From assembly GCA_022844165.1 (NCBI GenBank), contig JALHMH010000017.1, positions 1 through 64,000 on the forward strand: 64,000 nt of DNA. Direction: 5' to 3'. The position numbers and the translations under genes are program-made. The stretch comes from Lysobacterales bacterium. Its GTDB lineage: Bacteria > Pseudomonadota > Gammaproteobacteria > Xanthomonadales > SZUA-5. A model generated the notes under the pieces. The model worked only from the letters and a program-made list of their open reading frames with translations, made no database searches and was not told the DNA's origin. This document shows positions 16,758 to 52,407 of this stretch, piece after piece; the stretch's first letter is position 1; the number at the start of each line of letters is the position of its first letter.

Positions 16758-16833
<76 letters not shown>

Positions 16834-19442: not shown

Positions 19443-19862
19443 CTATTCCTCCCCCATGAATCGAAGCCTTGCCGCCGCAATCATCGGCGGCAAGGCGTGT
19501 CCCTGAGCCAGCGCAACCATGACGGTGTCGTCGCCGGCGATCGTTCCAGCCTGGCCCGGTAGTGGTTGGTGATCGAGCACAACCGCCAGGGCATTGGCAA
19601 ATCCAGGACGGGTGCGCATGATGATCAGGTTGGGCGGTGCGGCGATTATCGCCACAGCCGTCGGGCTGCCATCGCCTGGCGGGGCATAGCGTCCGCCGCG
19701 TTTTGTGATGCCCAGCCGAGTCAGGTGGCGCGAAAGCGTGGGTTGGCTGATATGCATGCCCATGCGCTCCAGGCCCTTCTGTAAGTCGTATTGATCGACG
19801 ATGCGTTCGTTGCAGACAAGATCCAGCAGTGTCTCATCCAGTTTGCTCGGCGTACGCGGCAT
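19443..19862 (-). CDS. argR: Arginine repressor
   Basis: SQPTLSRHL winged helix, RTRPGFA, GTIAGDDT arginine-binding motif. Confidence 0.9.
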   Translation of the reverse strand: MPRTPSKLDETLLDLVCNERIVDQYDLQKGLERMGMHISQPTLSRHLTRLGITKRGGRYAPPGDGSPTAVAIIAAPPNLIIMRTRPGFANALAVVLDHQPLPGQAGTIAGDDTVMVALAQGHALPPMIAAARLRFMGEE

Positions 19863-19883
19863 GGCTTGCGCTCGTGATGCGGT

Positions 19884-19918
19884 TTGCATAATATGCGTTC
19901 TTGTCGCATTTTATGCAA
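19884..19918. promoter_or_regulatory. Tandem ARG-box-like operators
   Basis: TGCATAATATGCG 19885-19897 and CGCATTTTATGCA 19905-19917 in the 60-bp gap between divergent argR and argD. Confidence 0.7.
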
Positions 19919-19922
19919 CGCA

Positions 19923-21056
19923 ATGAACGCGCTCCTCGATACCTACCCGGCTTTTCCTTTTGTGCTCGACAGTGGTTGCAACGACATGGTCGTGAGCGCC
20001 GAAGGCGTTGAATATGCCGATTGGTACGGGGGGCACTGTGTGACCATGACGGGTCATTGCCATCCGCATGTCGTGGCGGCCATTCAGGCGCAAGCGCAGC
20101 GGCTGCTGTTCTATTCGGCCGCGGCCAGGCTGGCGATTCGCGAACAGGCTGCCGAAGCGTTGATCGCACATCTGGCAGCCGCTGGTGGGCAGCGAGTTTT
20201 CTTCTGCAATTCCGGCGCCGAGGCGAACGAAAACGCGCTGAAGATGGCGATCAAGGCGACTGGGCGGATGCGAATTGCCGCCTTCGCAGGTGGCTGGCAT
20301 GGGCGCACGCTGTTGGCGCTGTCGGCCACCGACGATCACAAGATCACCTCGCCATTTGCGAAACTGCTGGTACCGGCTTTGCAGTTGCCATTTGCCGATC
20401 TCGATGTGCTCGCCGCGACTGATTTCGCCGACATCGCGGCAGTGATCGTCGAACCCATCCAGAGCATGTCCGGTATCCGCACGGCACCGCGCGAATGGTG
20501 GCAACGTCTTCGCGAGGTTACGGCGGCTGCTGGTACCTGGTTGATCATCGACGAAATTCAGACTGGGTTGGGCCGGGTGGGCACCAGCAGCGGTTCTGAA
20601 CTCTACGGCATACAGCCGGATGCGATGACCCTTGCCAAAGGCCTGGCATCTGGCGTTCCGATCGGCGCCACAGTGTTTTCCGCGTCGGCAGCGAGTGCCA
20701 TCGAACAGGGCGATCTGGGCAGCACATTCGGCGGCGGTCCGCTGGCGATGGCCGCATTGATCGCCACGCTGGAAGTGATCGACAACGAACGCTTGATCGA
20801 GCGCGCGGTATCGGTCGGGGGTCGCCTGAAGCGCTCGCTGATCGGCAACGCCGTCGACTCAGTGCTTGGAGAAGGACTGCTACTGGGGCTGCGTACGCGC
20901 GGCCCTGCGAAAGATCTCAAACAGCATCTTTTCGAGCGGCGCATGCTGGTTGGCGCATCCAGCGATCCGCATGTGTTGCGACTGATGCCGCCGCTGACGA
21001 TCAAAGACGAAACGATTGCGGCGCTCGAGTGCGCCGTCAAAGAATTTGGAGGCTGA
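19923..21056 (+). CDS. argD: Acyl-ornithine aminotransferase (class III PLP)
   Basis: NSGAEANE, VEPIQ, DEIQTGLGR, LAKGL, GSTFGG. Confidence 0.9.
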   Translation: MNALLDTYPAFPFVLDSGCNDMVVSAEGVEYADWYGGHCVTMTGHCHPHVVAAIQAQAQRLLFYSAAARLAIREQAAEALIAHLAAAGGQRVFFCNSGAEANENALKMAIKATGRMRIAAFAGGWHGRTLLALSATDDHKITSPFAKLLVPALQLPFADLDVLAATDFADIAAVIVEPIQSMSGIRTAPREWWQRLREVTAAAGTWLIIDEIQTGLGRVGTSSGSELYGIQPDAMTLAKGLASGVPIGATVFSASAASAIEQGDLGSTFGGGPLAMAALIATLEVIDNERLIERAVSVGGRLKRSLIGNAVDSVLGEGLLLGLRTRGPAKDLKQHLFERRMLVGASSDPHVLRLMPPLTIKDETIAALECAVKEFGG

Positions 21057-21060
21057 ACGC

Positions 21061-22059
21061 ATGCGCCACTACACACATATCAAGGATCTTGGCGTAGCCG
21101 GCCAGCAGAAACTGCTGAAACTGGCGGCCGATTACAAACGTGCGGAGCCAGGACCGATCCTGAAAAACAAGGTGCTCGGAATGCTGTTCTTCAATCCCTC
21201 GCTGCGCACCCGCACGAGCTTCGAAGTGGCCATGATGAAACTCGGTGGGCAGGCAGTGGCGTTGGAAGAGGGCAGTGGCGTTTGGAAGCTGGAAACCGAA
21301 GACGGCGCGCCGATGAATGGCGATAAAGCCGAGCACGTCCGCGAGGCCGCCGCAGTTCTATCGCGTTATGTGGATGTGCTGGGCGTGCGCGCGTTTTCGC
21401 GCGGCATGGGGCAGGCCGATGATGACTCCGATCGCGTGATCAATTCCTTTCGACAACACGCGCACGTACCGATGGTGAGTCTGGAGTCGGCGCGCGAGCA
21501 CCCGTGCCAGGGACTGGCGGATATGCTGACCATTCGCGAAAGCTTTGGGCAAACGCAGGGTGTCAACGTGGTTCTGAGCTGGGCGCCGCACGTCAAGCCG
21601 CTGCCGAAAGCCGTGCCGAATTCGGTGCTGTTGCATGCTGCTGCCGCGGGCTGCTCTATTACTGTCGCGCATCCGCCGGGGTTCGAACTCGGCGGCCCGG
21701 TACGGGAAGAGGCGGCGCAATATGCGGCTCAAAGTGGCGCCAGGATCCGCTATACCCATGATCAGCGCGAAGCGCTGAATGGTGCTCACGTAGTGTACGC
21801 AAAAGCCTGGGGGCCGGAGCCTCGGCAGAGCGAAGATGGGATCGTCGCATCGCCCGCGTTGCGCGGCTGGATGCCGACGCTCAAGCACTTTGAAGCGTGT
21901 ACCGACGACGCCATCTTCCTGCATTGCTTGCCGGTGCGTCGCGATGTCGAGGTTGGTAGCGATGTGCTCGATTCCGAGCGCTCGCGTGTCATCGATGAAG
22001 CCGAGAATCGAATGTGGGTGCAGATGGCGGCGCTTGCCTGGTTGTTCGAGCGCGCCTGA
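21061..22059 (+). CDS. argF': N-acylornithine carbamoyltransferase (ArgF'), N-succinylornithine type
   Basis: SLRTRTSF, HPCQ, HCLP; WKLE...GDKAEH and WAPH.KPLPKAVPNS loops typical of AOTCase/SOTCase. Confidence 0.9.
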   Translation: MRHYTHIKDLGVAGQQKLLKLAADYKRAEPGPILKNKVLGMLFFNPSLRTRTSFEVAMMKLGGQAVALEEGSGVWKLETEDGAPMNGDKAEHVREAAAVLSRYVDVLGVRAFSRGMGQADDDSDRVINSFRQHAHVPMVSLESAREHPCQGLADMLTIRESFGQTQGVNVVLSWAPHVKPLPKAVPNSVLLHAAAAGCSITVAHPPGFELGGPVREEAAQYAAQSGARIRYTHDQREALNGAHVVYAKAWGPEPRQSEDGIVASPALRGWMPTLKHFEACTDDAIFLHCLPVRRDVEVGSDVLDSERSRVIDEAENRMWVQMAALAWLFERA

Positions 22060-22155
22060 TTGCAAAGGGCAGAGCCGATTCGCTGCGCGAGCGCGTATCC
22101 GCCATTTGCGACCCACAAATTGGATCCCATTAGCCAGGAAACTAAAGAGAACACA

Positions 22156-23058
22156 ATGCCCTTCGCTGCCAATCCCTACGATGCGCTCAAAGGCCTGTCG
22201 AAATACTTGCGCCAGTTCCGTGGCAAAACCTTCGTCGTCAAGCTGGGCGGCGAAGTGCTGGACGATCCGGAATCGCGTCGCCGTGTGGTTGAACAAATCG
22301 GCGTGTTGTGGACGTTGTCGATCCGCGTGGTCGTGGTACATGGTGGTGGCGCGCAGCTCGACCAACTTTGCCAGAAGCTCAATTTGCCGATCGAAAAACA
22401 AGGTGGCCGCAGGGTCACGACCGCGCCGGTGCTGGATGCGGCGAAAATGGTGTTTAAAGGCGTCGCCAATACCGATCTGCTCGCAGAGATGAATCGTGTG
22501 GGTGTGCCGGGCGTCGGACTGAGTGGTGTGGACGCTGGACTCATCAAGGCAAAAAAACGTGCGCCGATTTATTTGGGCGAAGCCGACGGAAAACCGCAAC
22601 TGTTCGATTTCGGTTTTGTAGGCGACATCGAACAGGTCGACCCAACTTTGCTCGAACACCTGCTGGCTAAGGACTACGTTCCGGTCCTGGCACCATTGTC
22701 CGGGTCACCGGATGGCAGCGTGTACAACACCAATGCAGATACCATTGCCTCCCAGCTGGCTACGGTACTTGGCGCAGAGAAACTGTTTTTCGTGCTCAAG
22801 GTGCCTGGCTTGTTGAAGGACATGAACAATCCCTCGTCGTTGATCACCTTTGCGGCACTGTCCAAGCTCGACGAAATGGAAGCCCGCGGCGAACTGGGCG
22901 GCGGCATGCTGCCCAAGGCCGCTGCCATTCGTGGCGCGCTCAATGGCGGCGTCAAGTCCGTGCATATGGTCTCCGGCGTCCAGCCGGATGCGCTGCTTGT
23001 TGAGTGTTTCACCAACGAGGGCGCGGGCACGATGATCGTCAAGGACAACGAAGCGTGA
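22156..23058 (+). CDS. argB: Acetyl(acyl)glutamate kinase
   Basis: VVKLGG, VHGGG, YNTNAD, GGMLPK, EGAGT. Confidence 0.92.
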   Translation: MPFAANPYDALKGLSKYLRQFRGKTFVVKLGGEVLDDPESRRRVVEQIGVLWTLSIRVVVVHGGGAQLDQLCQKLNLPIEKQGGRRVTTAPVLDAAKMVFKGVANTDLLAEMNRVGVPGVGLSGVDAGLIKAKKRAPIYLGEADGKPQLFDFGFVGDIEQVDPTLLEHLLAKDYVPVLAPLSGSPDGSVYNTNADTIASQLATVLGAEKLFFVLKVPGLLKDMNNPSSLITFAALSKLDEMEARGELGGGMLPKAAAIRGALNGGVKSVHMVSGVQPDALLVECFTNEGAGTMIVKDNEA

Positions 23059-23166
23059 GTGCGTCGATCCGGTTCAGTACCAGACGATCGGCGACGAGTT
23101 GCGTGGAAGCGAGCGCAAGGCGATGAATGTCCGGCTCGTCGAGCGGCTGGCGGATGTGCGATTGCC

Positions 23167-24534
23167 ATGTCTCTGAATGATCCCGCACGTCCACTTTGGG
23201 CCAAAGGGCTGCCACTGGATGCCGTGATCCATCGCTTCACCGTGGGCGACGACCCGCGGCTCGATCGGGTGCTGCTCGCCCACGATTGTGTCGGTTCCGC
23301 CGCCCACGCGCGCGGACTGTTTGCTGCCCATTTGTTGAGCGAAGACGATGCGCGCGCGTTGGTGTGCGCGCTCGCGGAGTTGCATGGCGCCGCACGTCGC
23401 GGCGAGATTGAAATCACAGCGGCACAGGAAGACGCGCATACCGCAATCGAACACGCATTGGTGAGTCTTGTCGGTGAGGCGGGCAAGCGAATTCACCTCG
23501 GTCGCTCGCGCAACGATCAAGTGTTACTCGCGCTGCGGCTTTGGCTGCGCGAGCAAGTGGTTGCGACAGCACGCGGCTTGCAAACGCTGATCGAGGCGCT
23601 GCTCCTGCTCGGGGCAGAACATCAAGAGACGGCGCTGCCGGGTTACACGCACCTGCGCCGGGGAATGCCATCGAGCTTGGGACAGTGGGCCGCAGGCTAT
23701 GTCGAAGGTCTGTTGGAGGAGCTCGAAGCGCTAAACGGATTGTGGCAACGCATCGATCGTTGTCCGCTTGGTGCGGCCGCGGGATTTGGTGTGCCGTTGC
23801 CGCTGAAGCGCGAGTTGGTGGCGGAACTGTTGGGTTTTTCGCGCGTACAGCGCGCGCCAGTCGATGTGATGAACTCGCGCGGGCGGCACGAGCAGGCGTT
23901 GCTCGATGCGTTCGCGTCGATCGCGCACAGTTTGGAGAAGCTGGTCTGGGATTTGTCGCTGTACTCGACAGACGAGTTTGGTTTCGTGCGACTGCCGGAC
24001 GCATTCACCACCGGCTCGTCGATCATGCCGCAAAAACGCAACCCGGATGTGCTCGAACTGGCGCGCGCACGGTGTCGGGAGTTGCGCGGTCTGAGCGATT
24101 ACCACCGCCATATCGTGACTGGCTTACCCGGCAGCTATCACCGCGATTTCCAGTTGCACAAGCAGCCGCTATTCGCCGCCGCCGAAACGATGCCAGCCTT
24201 GCTCGATGTGTTGTCGCGATTGATCCCGGGATTGCAGTTCAACGCTGATGCCATGCGCAATGCAATGACCAGCGAGTTGTATGCAACGCACGCGGCGATT
24301 GCGCTGGTGCGCGATGGCGCGGCGTTTCGCGATGCGTACCGGCAGGTCGGTGGTGCCATCGCTGCCGGGGAATTCCAGCCCCCGGCTTTGTTGCCGGGCG
24401 ATGCGCATACGGGTGGTCTGGGCAAGCTCGAATTCGATGCCTATCGCAGAGAGCTGGCCATACTCGCGTCTCGTACCAACCAGCGCGAAACGATGCTGCT
24501 GGACATCGATCGCCAAATTTTTCTCTTGCCGTAA
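23167..24534 (+). CDS. argH: Argininosuccinate lyase
   Basis: GRSRNDQ, PGYTHL, GSSIMPQKRNPD. Confidence 0.95.
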   Translation: MSLNDPARPLWAKGLPLDAVIHRFTVGDDPRLDRVLLAHDCVGSAAHARGLFAAHLLSEDDARALVCALAELHGAARRGEIEITAAQEDAHTAIEHALVSLVGEAGKRIHLGRSRNDQVLLALRLWLREQVVATARGLQTLIEALLLLGAEHQETALPGYTHLRRGMPSSLGQWAAGYVEGLLEELEALNGLWQRIDRCPLGAAAGFGVPLPLKRELVAELLGFSRVQRAPVDVMNSRGRHEQALLDAFASIAHSLEKLVWDLSLYSTDEFGFVRLPDAFTTGSSIMPQKRNPDVLELARARCRELRGLSDYHRHIVTGLPGSYHRDFQLHKQPLFAAAETMPALLDVLSRLIPGLQFNADAMRNAMTSELYATHAAIALVRDGAAFRDAYRQVGGAIAAGEFQPPALLPGDAHTGGLGKLEFDAYRRELAILASRTNQRETMLLDIDRQIFLLP

Positions 24535-24546
24535 CGGACCCAAACC

Positions 24547-25746
24547 ATGTCGCAAAAACCGCTTTGCGTTCTCGCATTTTCTGGCGGCCTCGATACCTCC
24601 TTTTGTGTGCTGTACTTGCGCGAGCGTGGTTACGACGTGGCGACGGTCACCGTCGACACGGGTGGCTTCGATGCAGAGGAACTCGCGCGCATCGAGGCTG
24701 CCGCCAATCGTCTGGGCGCGATTTCGCATCAGGCGATCGACGCTCGCGGCGAACTTTGGCATGACTACTTGCGCTATCTGCTGTTCGGCAACGTGTTACG
24801 CGGCCAGCTTTATCCGTTGAGCGTTTCCGCCGAACGTGTGGCGCAGGCCAAACGAGTCGCGCACTATGCACTGGCCCAGGGCGCCCAGGCCATCGCGCAC
24901 GGCTCCACTGGTGCCGGCAACGATCAGGTGCGCTTCGACGTCGCGTTCCGCACGTTGTGCCCCGGCATCGAACTGATCACACCGATCCGCGAACTGGCGC
25001 TGTCGCGCGAGGCCGAAACGGCATGGCTTGCCGAACGGGGCGTTTCGATTCCCGCGAAGACCACGGCGTACTCAGTCAACGAAGGCATGTGGGGCACATC
25101 GGTGGGCGGTGGCGAGACGCACGATTCCTGGCGGCACTTGCCAGAAACTGCGTACCCGGGGGGCGCGGTCGATGCGACGCTGGCGCCGACAAAACTCGTG
25201 CTGGAGTTTGCGCAGGGCGTTCCAGTCGCTCTCGATGGGCAGGCGCTCGATGCGGTTGCCCTGATCGAAAAACTCAACGCGCTCGGCGATCGCTACGGCG
25301 TCGGTCGCGGCATCCACTTGGGCGACACCATTCTCGGCATCAAAGGCCGAGTCGGGTTCGCTGCCGCTGCGGCGCATATCCTGATCCAGGCGCACCGCGA
25401 GCTGGAAAAGTTGGTGTTGAGCGGCAAACAGCTGTTCTGGAAGGAATCGCTCGGCAATTTGTACGGCAGCCTGTTGCACGAGGGGCACTACTTCGATCCC
25501 TTGGCGCGCGATCTGGAGGCCTTTCTGCAGTCGAGCCAGCACAACGTCAGCGGCGAGGTACGGTTGTGTTTGTACCCACGCGCCATCGTGGTCGAAGGCG
25601 TGCGCTCGGCCCACAGTTTGATGCAGTCCAAAGTGGCCAGCTACGGCGAGGGCGCCAAGGCCTGGACGGGCGAAGAGGCACGTGGCTACTGCAAGCTGTT
25701 TGGCATCGCCCAACAAGTCGCGCTTGCAGCGCCGGAGGCGTCATGA
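24547..25746 (+). CDS. argG: Argininosuccinate synthase
   Basis: LAFSGGLDTS, HGSTGAGNDQVRFD. Confidence 0.95.
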   Translation: MSQKPLCVLAFSGGLDTSFCVLYLRERGYDVATVTVDTGGFDAEELARIEAAANRLGAISHQAIDARGELWHDYLRYLLFGNVLRGQLYPLSVSAERVAQAKRVAHYALAQGAQAIAHGSTGAGNDQVRFDVAFRTLCPGIELITPIRELALSREAETAWLAERGVSIPAKTTAYSVNEGMWGTSVGGGETHDSWRHLPETAYPGGAVDATLAPTKLVLEFAQGVPVALDGQALDAVALIEKLNALGDRYGVGRGIHLGDTILGIKGRVGFAAAAAHILIQAHRELEKLVLSGKQLFWKESLGNLYGSLLHEGHYFDPLARDLEAFLQSSQHNVSGEVRLCLYPRAIVVEGVRSAHSLMQSKVASYGEGAKAWTGEEARGYCKLFGIAQQVALAAPEAS

Positions 25747-26792
25747 GAATCACGGTGGACAAGATTGCGAGTGTGACGCGCAATCTAAAACTGGCGCGAA
25801 CCTTGACCTTGAGCGAACACATCCTGCTGGAAGAAGGTTCGGTGGTTGCCGTGCGCGTGCATGGCGAAAAGTCCACTTACAATCAACTCGAAGACACACA
25901 CGGCCGCTGGATGACGCTACACGATGGCGATCTGGTGGTCGGCGCGCTCGGCAAGCGCCACGCGCTGCACGGTTATGAGGGCGTGATGCCGCAGTCGCTG
26001 GCGGTGGGCGATACGATCAATATGCTCAATATCGGTGGCGTCATGGGGCAATGCGTATCGTTCAACCCGGATGTCGGCAAACCGTTTCAGTTGGAAGTGC
26101 TCGGCCAGGTGCAGATCTTTCCTGAGTTTCAGTCGCGCCACGGCATTGCGGCCCATGTGCGGCACAACGCGCTCCAGGGCGTGCCCGATGCACCCAAGGT
26201 GCCGATCGTCTTTATCTTGGGCACGTGCATGAACGCCGGCAAGACCCTCGCAGGTTCGGCGATTGTTCGTGCGTTGCACCAACAAGGATTGAGAATCGGC
26301 GGCGCAAAGCTGACCGGGATCTCGCTGATGCGCGACACGCTGCACTTGTACGATCACGGCGCCGAAGTGATCGCCGACTTTACCGACGCCGGGATCGTCT
26401 GTTCTGGGCCCGAATCGGCGGCGCAAACGGCGCATGCGGTGTTGAGCGAAATCGCCGCGAAAGGCGTCGATGTGATCGTTGCCGAAACCGGCGATGGCGT
26501 GATGGGCGAATACGGCGTGCAGGCGATTCTCGCCGATGCCGATTTACGCACACAATGCGCATGTTTTGTGTTCTGTGCGAACGACCCGGTCGGCGTCAAA
26601 GGCGGCGTCGACTATCTGAAGGCGAGCTACGGTATCGACGTCGATATCGTCGCCGGACCCGCCACCGACAATCAGGTGGGGTCGCGCTTTGTCGAACGAC
26701 TGGGTATCCCGGCACGCAATGCGCGTGTCGATCCCAAAGCGCTCGGCGAATTGGCCGTCGAGAAGGTGCGAGCGTTTCGGAGCAGGCAATGA
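25743..26792 (+). CDS. DUF1611-like P-loop-fold protein inside the arg operon
   Basis: GTCMNAGKT (26220-26246), GAKLTG..RD, DFTDAG, ETGDG; ATGA overlaps with both argG and argC. Confidence 0.8.
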   Translation: MRITVDKIASVTRNLKLARTLTLSEHILLEEGSVVAVRVHGEKSTYNQLEDTHGRWMTLHDGDLVVGALGKRHALHGYEGVMPQSLAVGDTINMLNIGGVMGQCVSFNPDVGKPFQLEVLGQVQIFPEFQSRHGIAAHVRHNALQGVPDAPKVPIVFILGTCMNAGKTLAGSAIVRALHQQGLRIGGAKLTGISLMRDTLHLYDHGAEVIADFTDAGIVCSGPESAAQTAHAVLSEIAAKGVDVIVAETGDGVMGEYGVQAILADADLRTQCACFVFCANDPVGVKGGVDYLKASYGIDVDIVAGPATDNQVGSRFVERLGIPARNARVDPKALGELAVEKVRAFRSRQ

Positions 26793-27838
26793 TCGATGTC
26801 GTTGTGCTGGGCGCGTCCGGCTACGGCGGCGGCGAGCTGCTGCGACTACTGAGTCAATATCCGCACACCGGATCGATCACGGCGCTGTCTCGCCAGCATG
26901 CGGGAAAGCCGATCCATGCAGTGCATCCGCATTTGCGAGGTCTGGTGAGCGGCGAATTTGTGGCCAACGTCGATTGGTCGAAGCTTTCGGAGAGTGCGTC
27001 GCCCGTGGTGTTTGCGGCAATGCCGCATGGCGAATTTGCCAGACAATACGCGGCACTTGAAGCAGCCTGGGCCCACGCCGGGCTGGTTGATCGTATCAAG
27101 GTCATCGATTTGTCGGGCGATTTCCGATTGGAAGATGCCGACGCTTTCGAAGCAGCCTATGGATTTGCCCATCCATGCCCGCAGGCGCTGGATCAGTTCA
27201 CCTATGGACTGAGCGAATGGAATACCACAGCCATCGCAGCGAGCAGGCGGATCGCCAACCCTGGTTGTTTTGCCACCGCGATCCAGCTCGGGTTATTGCC
27301 GTTGCGGGCGCTGGATCTGGCCTGTCCATCCTGGGTTGCGATCAGCGCGATCACCGGATCCAGCGGTTCTGGCGCTGTGCCGTCCGAGACCACGCATCAC
27401 CCGACGCGTGCGCACGATTTTCGCGCTTACAAGATGTTGCAGCACCAGCACGAGAGCGAAATTCGCGCCTCGCTTCAACGTCATGGTACAGCGATCGATT
27501 TTGCGCTGGTGCCGCATTCGGCGCCGTTGGTGCGTGGAATTTTTGCGACCATCACTTTCCCCAGTGCAGTGGCAACGCACGAGCTGCGCGGGGCTTTTGA
27601 GAGCGCCTACCGAGATGCTTTCTTCGTCCGCATAGTAGACGGGACGCCGCGTGTCGCTGCCGTTTCCGGCAGTAATTTCGCGGATATCGGCGTTTGCTCA
27701 AGAAGTGGCGCCGCTACGGTGATGATCGCCATTGACAATTTGCTCAAGGGAATGGCTGGCCAGGCGCTGCAAAATTTGAACTTGATGCAGTCATATGCCG
27801 TCGAAATCGGCCTTCGCAACGCCGCCTGTTTTCCGTAA
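26789..27838 (+). CDS. argC: N-acyl-gamma-glutamyl-phosphate reductase
   Basis: GASGYGG, DLSGDFR, IANPGCF, DNLLKGMAGQA. Confidence 0.95.
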   Translation: MIDVVVLGASGYGGGELLRLLSQYPHTGSITALSRQHAGKPIHAVHPHLRGLVSGEFVANVDWSKLSESASPVVFAAMPHGEFARQYAALEAAWAHAGLVDRIKVIDLSGDFRLEDADAFEAAYGFAHPCPQALDQFTYGLSEWNTTAIAASRRIANPGCFATAIQLGLLPLRALDLACPSWVAISAITGSSGSGAVPSETTHHPTRAHDFRAYKMLQHQHESEIRASLQRHGTAIDFALVPHSAPLVRGIFATITFPSAVATHELRGAFESAYRDAFFVRIVDGTPRVAAVSGSNFADIGVCSRSGAATVMIAIDNLLKGMAGQALQNLNLMQSYAVEIGLRNAACFP

Positions 27839-52220: not shown

Positions 52221-52407
52221 GGGTCCTCCGCCAATGCCGATGCGTGTCAAGCGACCTTGATCCTTCGGATCAGGTGGGAAGATAGATGGCCGCTAAAGGC
52301 GGTCCGCATAAAGCGGACATGCACATACACGGCACGGAACTCTTCCCGGGGTCGAACAACAGGGTCAAGGTATATTGCGGACGCGCTGTCGAACAACGCA
52401 GAGGACG
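52221..52407 (-). ncRNA. ssrS: 6S RNA
   Basis: About 185 nt between zapA and ygfA; terminal stem GTCCTC/GAGGAC and CCTTGA/TCAAGG pairing typical of 6S. Confidence 0.9.

Follow-up and report, generated by a model that had tools for sequence, protein, structure and literature searches.

A predicted N-succinyl-type arginine operon in a Lysobacterales bacterium and its P-loop protein as a candidate N-succinyl-L-glutamate-forming enzyme

Gene content and organization of the arginine operon

The window considered here, i.e. the whole stretch of DNA that was analysed, comprises the first 64,000 nucleotides of contig JALHMH010000017.1 from the assembly GCA_022844165.1 of a Lysobacterales bacterium. 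It carries an arginine-biosynthesis locus in which argR, on the minus strand, is divergent from the genes argD-argF'-argB-argH-argG-X-argC on the plus strand (19923-27838). Here X stands for a gene whose 349-residue product is, on the reading developed below, probably the enzyme that forms N-succinyl-L-glutamate in place of ArgA or ArgJ. This gene order had been read from the sequence alone in an earlier note (hereinafter the original prediction), with which our coordinates and Pfam and NCBIfam matches agree. X, which had been left as the only unassigned gene there, is also the sole gene of the locus without a Pfam or NCBIfam family at E<=0.001. The features of the locus are as follows:

19443-19889, minus strand: argR, arginine repressor (PF02863, 7.9e-14; PF01316, 5.7e-08; TIGR01529, 5.6e-20, under its cut-off), with a possible alternative start at 19862
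19886-19896 and 19906-19916, strand-neutral: two palindromic 11-base ARG-box-like sites between argR and argD, GCATAATATGC and GCATTTTATGC respectively, 20 bases apart (motif match)
19923-21056, plus strand: argD, N-acyl(succinyl)ornithine aminotransferase (PF00202, 1.8e-83; TIGR00707, 314.4 bits, under the cut-off of 410)
21061-22059, plus strand: argF', N-acylornithine carbamoyltransferase (NF003384, 396.9 bits, cut-off 288; succinyl-type signature A90/P182/E297)
22156-23058, plus strand: argB, N-acylglutamate kinase, 300 amino acids (TIGR00761, 199.4 bits, cut-off 151.3; PF00696)
23167-24534, plus strand: argH, argininosuccinate lyase (TIGR00838, 300.1 bits, cut-off 279.5)
24547-25746, plus strand: argG, argininosuccinate synthase (TIGR00032, 294.3 bits, cut-off 268.2)
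25743-26792, plus strand: X, predicted N-succinyl-L-glutamate-forming enzyme, 349 amino acids (no family at E<=0.001; context, conserved residues and fold model)
26789-27838, plus strand: argC (TIGR01850, 322.2 bits, cut-off 233.6)

The start and stop codons of X are embedded in its neighbors, with 4-base overlaps both between the argG stop and the X start and between the X stop and the argC start, and no NAT domain is fused to ArgB. The two sites between argR and argD are exact copies of the motif GCATWWWATGC, of which the 4.68-Mb genome contains 8 in all, and they form its only tandem pair with 0 mismatches. Tandem pairs with at most 2 mismatches number 9 in the genome as against 0 in a reversed-genome control, and similar ARG-like boxes are found upstream of related operons in other phyla. 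Two AT-rich near-matches to the operator lie within a long open reading frame (C39:31901) and among short unassigned open reading frames (C15:89892).

ArgF' displays the signature of succinyl-specific carbamoyltransferases

The acetyl- and succinyl-specific versions of the N-acylornithine carbamoyltransferases differ at positions 92, 185 and 302, where the former (AOTCase) display E, N and K, and the latter (SOTCase) A/S/P/V/Q, P and V/I/E respectively (PMC4581275). Alignment of the window ArgF' with the Xanthomonas campestris AOTCase places A90, P182 and E297 opposite E92, N185 and K302, so that all three residues follow the SOTCase rule. At the first of these positions the substitutions E92A/P/S/V switch specificity, according to Shi et al. 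2007 as cited in the text of GapMind 2026 (bioRxiv 10.1101/2024.10.14.618325). The closest solved relative of the protein is a chain of the X. campestris AOTCase (3l02_A, 1.4e-69), in which the residue opposite A90 is also A, its sister chains having E or S there; the B. fragilis SOTCase chains 2fg6, 2g7m and 1js1 are recovered at 2e-60 to 4.5e-60.

The same tendency extends to the ArgF' proteins encoded next to X homologues, among 60 of which the residue at position 92 is A in 39, P in 17, T in 3, Q in 1 and E in none. The model NF003384 names the window protein N-acetylornithine carbamoyltransferase, but it does not separate acetyl from succinyl specificity; since all three residues are of the succinyl type despite that name, automatic annotation is likely to misname this ArgF'. 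Thus, the host is predicted to use N-succinylated intermediates, as had been suggested in the original prediction, and the operon would be one of the rare succinyl type.

Known N-acylglutamate synthases and deacylases are not recovered in the genome

We searched the whole source genome (59 contigs, 99.97% complete) with profiles for the missing steps. There was no match over the cut-off for ArgA (TIGR01890), the top match being the domain of the window's own ArgB at 122.7 bits, and none for ArgJ (PF01960), the NAT domain (PF04768), the Xanthomonas-type ArgE (NF006439) or AstE (PF04952). The absence of ArgA, ArgJ and ArgE, which the original prediction had noted for the operon with the proviso that they could lie elsewhere, therefore holds for the genome at the level of these profiles. 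The 5 weak GNAT matches that were found are RimI or generic proteins, none of them over a curated ArgA cut-off. Likewise, in 5 of 5 other X-bearing genomes from other groups ArgJ was not found and no ArgA exceeded its cut-off.

X is a conserved component of arginine gene clusters

Sequence searches with X recovered 5,255 relatives at E<=0.001 out of 8,000 candidates that were scored and, in a separate search, 1,384 clusters at 50% identity; the family spans Acidobacteriota, Myxococcota, Verrucomicrobiota and several gammaproteobacterial lineages. An Atlas search brought up only clusters of this same family, under automatic names. Of 594 pattern matches in species-representative genomes, 584 were confirmed as relatives, and for the best 80 of these loci the neighbors were counted by tblastn mapping. 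Each of the 80 loci had arg genes at a distance of no more than 9 kb from X. Among the loci with enough flank, argG was immediately upstream of X in 69 of 74 and argC immediately downstream in 66 of 69, reproducing the arrangement seen in the window. The profile of X across genomes, which had been proposed as a check, thus came out in favor of a link to arginine synthesis. The locus is a real, coherent and well-conserved arginine-biosynthesis variant pathway.

A further conserved feature of these clusters is a gene of the ArgE/DapE family, situated between argB and argH in 42 of the 57 loci whose upstream flank extends for 7.5 kb or more. This in-cluster M20 protein of other phyla, which scores 139-161 bits against TIGR01910 and lies under all curated cut-offs, is absent from the window. 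The X proteins of the M20-bearing loci are 56-66% identical to the window X and share the same conserved residues. The remaining 15 of the 57 loci lack an in-cluster hydrolase and are either gammaproteobacterial or short clusters of Bdellovibrionales/Myxococcota. The gammaproteobacterial ones comprise metagenome-assembled genomes labelled Rhodanobacteraceae or Gammaproteobacteria and Natronospira, together with one metagenome-assembled genome labelled Bacillota.

The clusters also display some architectural variation. A second M20 gene, besides the in-cluster ArgE/DapE-like gene, directly follows argC in 14 of the 80 loci, which are labelled Holophagaceae, Geothrix, Acidobacteria(ota) and, in one case, Solibacteraceae; its product is dipeptidase-like (NF006053, 342 bits, under the cut-off). 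Metagenome-assembled genomes labelled Bdellovibrionales/Myxococcota (L083, L085, L087) have a short argF'-argB-X-argC cluster with no argG or argH beside X, and in these position 92 of ArgF' is T. Clusters labelled Myxococcaceae, one of which (L062) is labelled Comamonas sp., have no argD between argR and argF'.

Distribution within the order and origin of the operon

The distribution of X within the order was studied in a sample of 119 genomes, of which 12 belong to the window's family and 107 to other families. All 12 genomes of the window's family have an X orthologue (71-94% identity), whereas none was found in the other families. The NAT domain was found in 0 of the 12 genomes as against 98 of the 107 elsewhere, and the NF006439 ArgE in 0 of the 12 as against 99 of the 107, a contrast that amounts to one event in one family, whose members are kin and not independent, so that it illustrates the pattern and furnishes no statistic. 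One other family of the order (f10), which has no X orthologue, is also irregular, with the NAT domain in 7 of 13 genomes and the NF006439 ArgE in 8 of 13; the genomes of this family may be auxotrophs or may use yet another route.

Ten other genomes of the order have only distant homologues of X (25-35% identity), and as 8 of the 8 whose loci were inspected lie outside arg clusters, these homologues were treated as paralogues and excluded from the ortholog counts. Their neighbors are an M20 peptidase and a flavin-reductase-like gene in 3 loci and an ABC transporter and a porin in 3 others; the paralogue loci include L093:8688-9692, L096:8072-9190 and L098:8065-9168. One paralogue is just over the PF07755 cut-off at 26.7 bits, in the P-loop only.

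Comparison of the operon proteins of the window showed 50-69% identity to those of clusters from Holophagaceae, Corallococcus, Chthoniobacterales and Solibacteraceae, as against 27-44% to the argF'-argG-argE-argA/B-argC-argH clusters of three genomes of the same order, in which the gene order also differs. Hence, to judge from these identities, the whole succinyl-type operon appears to have been transferred and to have displaced the resident acetyl-type cluster of the Xanthomonas kind in one family; as for the donor and the direction of such a transfer, these we can only infer. The structural RNA genes elsewhere in the window, namely a 6S RNA at 52221-52407 on the minus strand (69.8 bits) and a tRNA-Ala(CGC) at 16758-16833 on the minus strand, are ordinary.

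X combines a P-loop domain with an apparently distinctive N-terminal domain

An AlphaFold2 model of X built from 60 homologues (mean predicted local distance difference test score, pLDDT, 97.2) shows an all-beta N-terminal domain spanning residues ~1-145, followed by a P-loop domain spanning residues ~150-349. The latter contains a Walker A motif, GTCMNAGKT, at 160-168. Among 60 diverse homologues G166, K167 and K189 never vary, and at least 90% keep T168, D215 and E248. These residues are presumably the counterparts of the BioD ligands for phosphate and Mg.

Foldseek searches with the whole model returned as top rows the SIMIBI GTPases and ATPases FtsY, SRP54, HypB and MeaB (E ~1e-6); DgcN 7xrj was not among the matches listed. 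When Foldseek's best 999 chains were realigned with VIA-align, the top single row was the DUF1611 protein 2g0t (2g0t_B; Z 16.9, root-mean-square deviation 3.1, 180 residues), and the rows for CTP synthase (Z 16.2-15.0), BioD (Z 15.8-15.0), a second DUF1611 protein, 2obn (2obn_D; Z 15.1), and the DUF1611 enzyme DgcN, 7xrj (Z 14.9, root-mean-square deviation 3.3 A, 183 residues, rank 32), lie close to it. A profile of the X family searched against the PDB sequences gave one match below 0.001, the BioD of Mycobacterium tuberculosis (2.4e-4), in which the Walker A motif is aligned and the invariant K189 of X stands opposite the lysine of the BioD 'CKP' motif. Opposite the KLTG of X, with its invariant lysine, TGQTG stands in the DUF1611/DgcN alignment.

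The original prediction had described X as DUF1611-like, and this description stands for the fold of the P-loop domain (Z 14.9-16.9) but not for membership of the family. By the Pfam cut-off X is outside DUF1611: PF07755 matches residues 149-185 only, with E=0.02 and a score of 14.7 bits, the cut-off being 25. Several further observations, like this one, weigh against reading X by way of DgcN. The DUF1611 rows of the VIA-align search are tied with those of the ATP-dependent CTP synthase and BioD, within ~1-2 Z units. The X-family profile searched against the PDB sequences finds BioD and FtsY, not 7xrj. An hhalign comparison of the X family with a DgcN/DUF1611 alignment, which contains a protein matching 7xrj_A at 2.3e-106, gave a probability of 39.6% and an E of 3.1e-4 over 101 P-loop columns only; the match spans residues 150-264 of X, with the N-domain outside it. 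The N-domain itself has no Pfam match at E<=10 and, folded alone (pLDDT 91.7), no Foldseek match at E<=0.001, and appears to differ from that of DUF1611. The VIA-align rows for the DUF1611 chains begin at residue 55 or 98 of the X model, so that a partial overlap with the N-domain is possible. Taken together, the fold, profile and N-domain results lead us to regard X as a P-loop protein of the BioD/CTP-synthase/DUF1611 class with what appears to be an N-domain of its own.

The proposed pathway and its relationship to known systems

The above contextual and structural observations suggest the following pathway. ArgR would control an operon for the synthesis of arginine via N-succinylated intermediates, in which X would make N-succinyl-L-glutamate, replacing ArgA or ArgJ. 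The acyl donor would be succinyl-CoA, as we infer by remote analogy from the acetyl-CoA-dependent DUF1611 enzyme DgcN, to which the likeness is weak. ArgB, ArgC and ArgD would take N-succinylglutamate to N-succinylornithine, which ArgF' would carbamoylate to N-succinylcitrulline. The succinyl group would be removed by an enzyme encoded outside the operon, for which DapE is our best guess (see below), and ArgG and ArgH would then make arginine.

This prediction has a precedent. GapMind 2026 (bioRxiv 10.1101/2024.10.14.618325; PLoS Genet 2026;22:e1012372) predicts that the Steroidobacter protein ACG33_RS14135 is an alternative N-succinylglutamate synthase. The grounds given in its text are a position in an arg cluster, non-co-occurrence with ArgA and a remote Foldseek likeness to 7XRJ, along with A/P/S/V at position 92 of ArgF' in 90% of 70 neighbors; ArgE is reported there as also missing. 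Like X, ACG33_RS14135 is a hypothetical protein in a cluster with argB, argC, argD, argF', argG, argH and argR, both genomes lack ArgA and ArgE, both proteins are only remotely similar in structure to DgcN 7XRJ, and the above figure for its ArgF' neighbors compares with A or P in 56 of 60 neighbors of X. The Steroidobacter host belongs to a different order; what the window's order shows in addition is the replacement of an acetyl-type cluster by the whole operon. As regards the novelty that the original prediction had claimed for this arginine route, the same prediction by the same reasoning is thus already in print, and the window is a further instance of it and no discovery.

The proposed route resembles several characterized systems in part. 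The succinyl pathway of Bacteroides combines a SOTCase ArgF' with a GNAT N-succinylglutamate synthase, BT3761, and a desuccinylase, BT3549 (GapMind 2020). The succinylated intermediates and the ArgF' signature are the same as in the window, whereas X is not a GNAT and a dedicated desuccinylase was not found in the window genome. The acetyl-type pathway of Xanthomonas, from the same order, also carbamoylates N-acylornithine but relies on a bifunctional ArgA/B with a NAT domain and on an ArgE of the NF006439 type, neither of which was found in the window's family (0 of 12). DgcN and other DUF1611 proteins (PF07755; 7XRJ, 2OBN, 2G0T) share with X the fold of the C-terminal P-loop domain. DgcN is a D-glutamate N-acetyltransferase (PDB title and the text of GapMind 2026), whereas acylation of glutamate is only proposed for X, whose substrates would be L-glutamate and a succinyl group in place of the D-glutamate and acetyl group of DgcN. 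The DUF1611 N-domain also appears to differ from the all-beta N-domain of X, which has no Foldseek match to a solved structure. BioD and the synthetase domain of CTP synthase likewise match the C-domain of X (Z 15-16), with alignment of the BioD Walker A motif and the following lysine, and differ from X in their pathway context and in its extra N-terminal beta domain.

Alternative functions for X

Because of elimination of the known enzymes and the phyletic pattern, we infer that X would be the synthase. It is, as the original prediction had also held, the best candidate for the acylation of glutamate: it belongs to an arg cluster in all 80 related loci, ArgA and ArgJ were recovered neither from the source genome nor from any of the 5 other carriers searched, and within the order it is anticorrelated with the NAT domain. 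Beyond the weak link to DgcN and the single event behind the contrast within the order, the following points weigh against this assignment. The activity of X is a prediction throughout, and Table 1 of GapMind 2026 (PLoS Genet e1012372) marks the ACG33_RS14135 prediction 'Evidence: no'. X fits the family of that protein (A0A127FCT3) by a match of description, and no record named Steroidobacter was among the X relatives listed. An unrecognized GNAT could also still be the synthase.

An alternative chemistry suggested by the fold is that of an ATP-dependent succinate:L-glutamate ligase, which would form an acyl phosphate on the P-loop in the manner of BioD and CTP synthase. The tie of these two enzymes with DUF1611 among the closest folds, the M. 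tuberculosis BioD as the only PDB profile match below 0.001 with K189 aligned, and the KLTG of X in place of the TGQTG of DUF1611/DgcN are all in keeping with such a ligase, as are the conserved G166, K167, T168, D215 and E248; the fold, the BioD-like lysine K189 and the conserved acidic residues would fit it equally well. Nevertheless, the top single VIA-align row is the DUF1611 protein 2g0t, and DgcN 7xrj bears the title of an N-acetyltransferase in the PDB. Moreover, a Walker A lysine and a Walker-B-like glutamate are found in DUF1611 proteins too, so that these residues are no proof of ATP use; on balance we regard a ligase as unlikely. X might alternatively be an accessory nucleoside triphosphatase, i.e. 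a metal-insertion or regulatory P-loop protein, with an unrecognized acyltransferase encoded elsewhere serving as the synthase. This would agree with the SIMIBI proteins heading the Foldseek rows and with the several generic GNATs in the genome. However, no synthase would then be accounted for in any of the X-bearing genomes examined, which cover at least 4 phyla, X also occurs in clusters without any metallohydrolase, and VIA-align ranks DUF1611, CTP synthase and BioD above the GTPases, which makes an accessory role very improbable.

The original prediction had further entertained a cyclic route, in which X, in the manner of ArgJ, would take succinyl off N-succinylcitrulline (or N-succinylornithine), pass it on to glutamate and so replace both ArgA and ArgE. 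It could draw on the gain of X as the sole gene in a family where the usual synthase and deacylase of the order were not found, on the 15 of 57 loci without an in-cluster deacylase gene, and on the genome having no second ArgR-box pair that points to a distant arg gene. Against this, 42 of the 57 loci have, besides X, a dedicated ArgE/DapE-family gene between argB and argH, and since their X is 56-66% identical to that of the window and shares its conserved residues, one would not expect the activity to differ between the two settings. A cyclic route would still need a priming synthase, and, to our knowledge, none of the characterized enzymes among the fold matches of X is an amide-to-amine acyl transferase. 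No evidence for such recycling emerged, though it may still occur in the window's lineage, which lacks the hydrolase gene; because most carriers keep that gene beside X we give the cyclic route a very slight chance. The favored reading thus continues to be that of X as an N-succinyl-L-glutamate-forming synthase.

Removal of the succinyl group

If X is such a synthase, a desuccinylase would be required at the step following ArgF'. The strong M20 (PF01546) proteins of the genome are 3 in number, namely DapE, an M20D amidohydrolase and a dipeptidase-like protein. DapE (C46:6107-7228) scores 524 bits against NF009557, with a cut-off of 284, and is the genome's only protein of the ArgE/DapE type; similarly, in 24 of 25 genomes of the window's family the ArgE/DapE model matches essentially one full-length protein. 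Furthermore, DapE is over the cut-off in 6 of 6 checked gammaproteobacterial X genomes without an in-cluster M20, and in 0 of 4 checked genomes with one. These observations point to DapE as an enzyme that may also hydrolyse N-succinylcitrulline where no dedicated gene exists, a proposal that we hold tentatively. Two observations count against it: the split between DapE and the in-cluster M20 tracks phylogeny, i.e. gammaproteobacteria versus other phyla, and a second, weaker ArgE/DapE paralogue is present elsewhere in 3 of the 6 gammaproteobacterial genomes. Among the papers on succinylcitrulline that were listed, titles and abstract openings make no mention of DapE acting on it.

To the same tentative degree, the desuccinylase may instead be an unrecognized hydrolase, and the probability that is left is split between transfer by X and other options. 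The other candidates that were considered gave no lead. The dipeptidase-like M20 (contig C12) was rejected as a lineage-specific replacement of ArgE, being present in 90 of the 119 genomes of the order, including families that bear ArgE, and the M20D amidohydrolase (contig C1) was set aside on account of an N-terminus that by eye resembles a secretion signal. Downstream of argC in the gammaproteobacterial loci the recurrent gene of ~280 amino acids codes for a short-chain dehydrogenase and is followed by an ABC transporter. The ArgR regulon was likewise uninformative, the arg operator being the only perfect tandem pair genome-wide. An insertion in argE (MXAN_1012) of M. xanthus results in arginine auxotrophy (PMC5801462); we did not use this observation, since an insertion there would be polar and the identity of the gene with the in-cluster M20 is unconfirmed.

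The combination of two of the above proposals, in which X would be an ATP-dependent succinate:L-glutamate ligase, built from a P-loop domain of the BioD/CTP-synthase type and a previously unseen beta domain, and DapE would double as the N-succinylcitrulline desuccinylase, is rather improbable as a whole. Were it to hold, arginine would be made without an acyl-CoA transferase or a dedicated deacylase, and the deprotection step would be shared with lysine/diaminopimelate synthesis.

General conclusions

In conclusion, the locus described here sharpens two questions, for both of which there are now candidates, namely the acyl donor of X and the means by which the succinyl group is removed where no ArgE-type gene exists. 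It also adds a natural experiment to the earlier prediction, in that one family of the order would have swapped its whole acetyl-type cluster for one of the succinyl type. More generally, the genome annotations of a large set of bacteria lack the first committed step of arginine synthesis. Should X be the synthase that supplies it, its carriers would be prototrophs mistaken for auxotrophs by automated tools, and the ArgF' proteins of these carriers would be routinely misnamed as acetyl-type enzymes.

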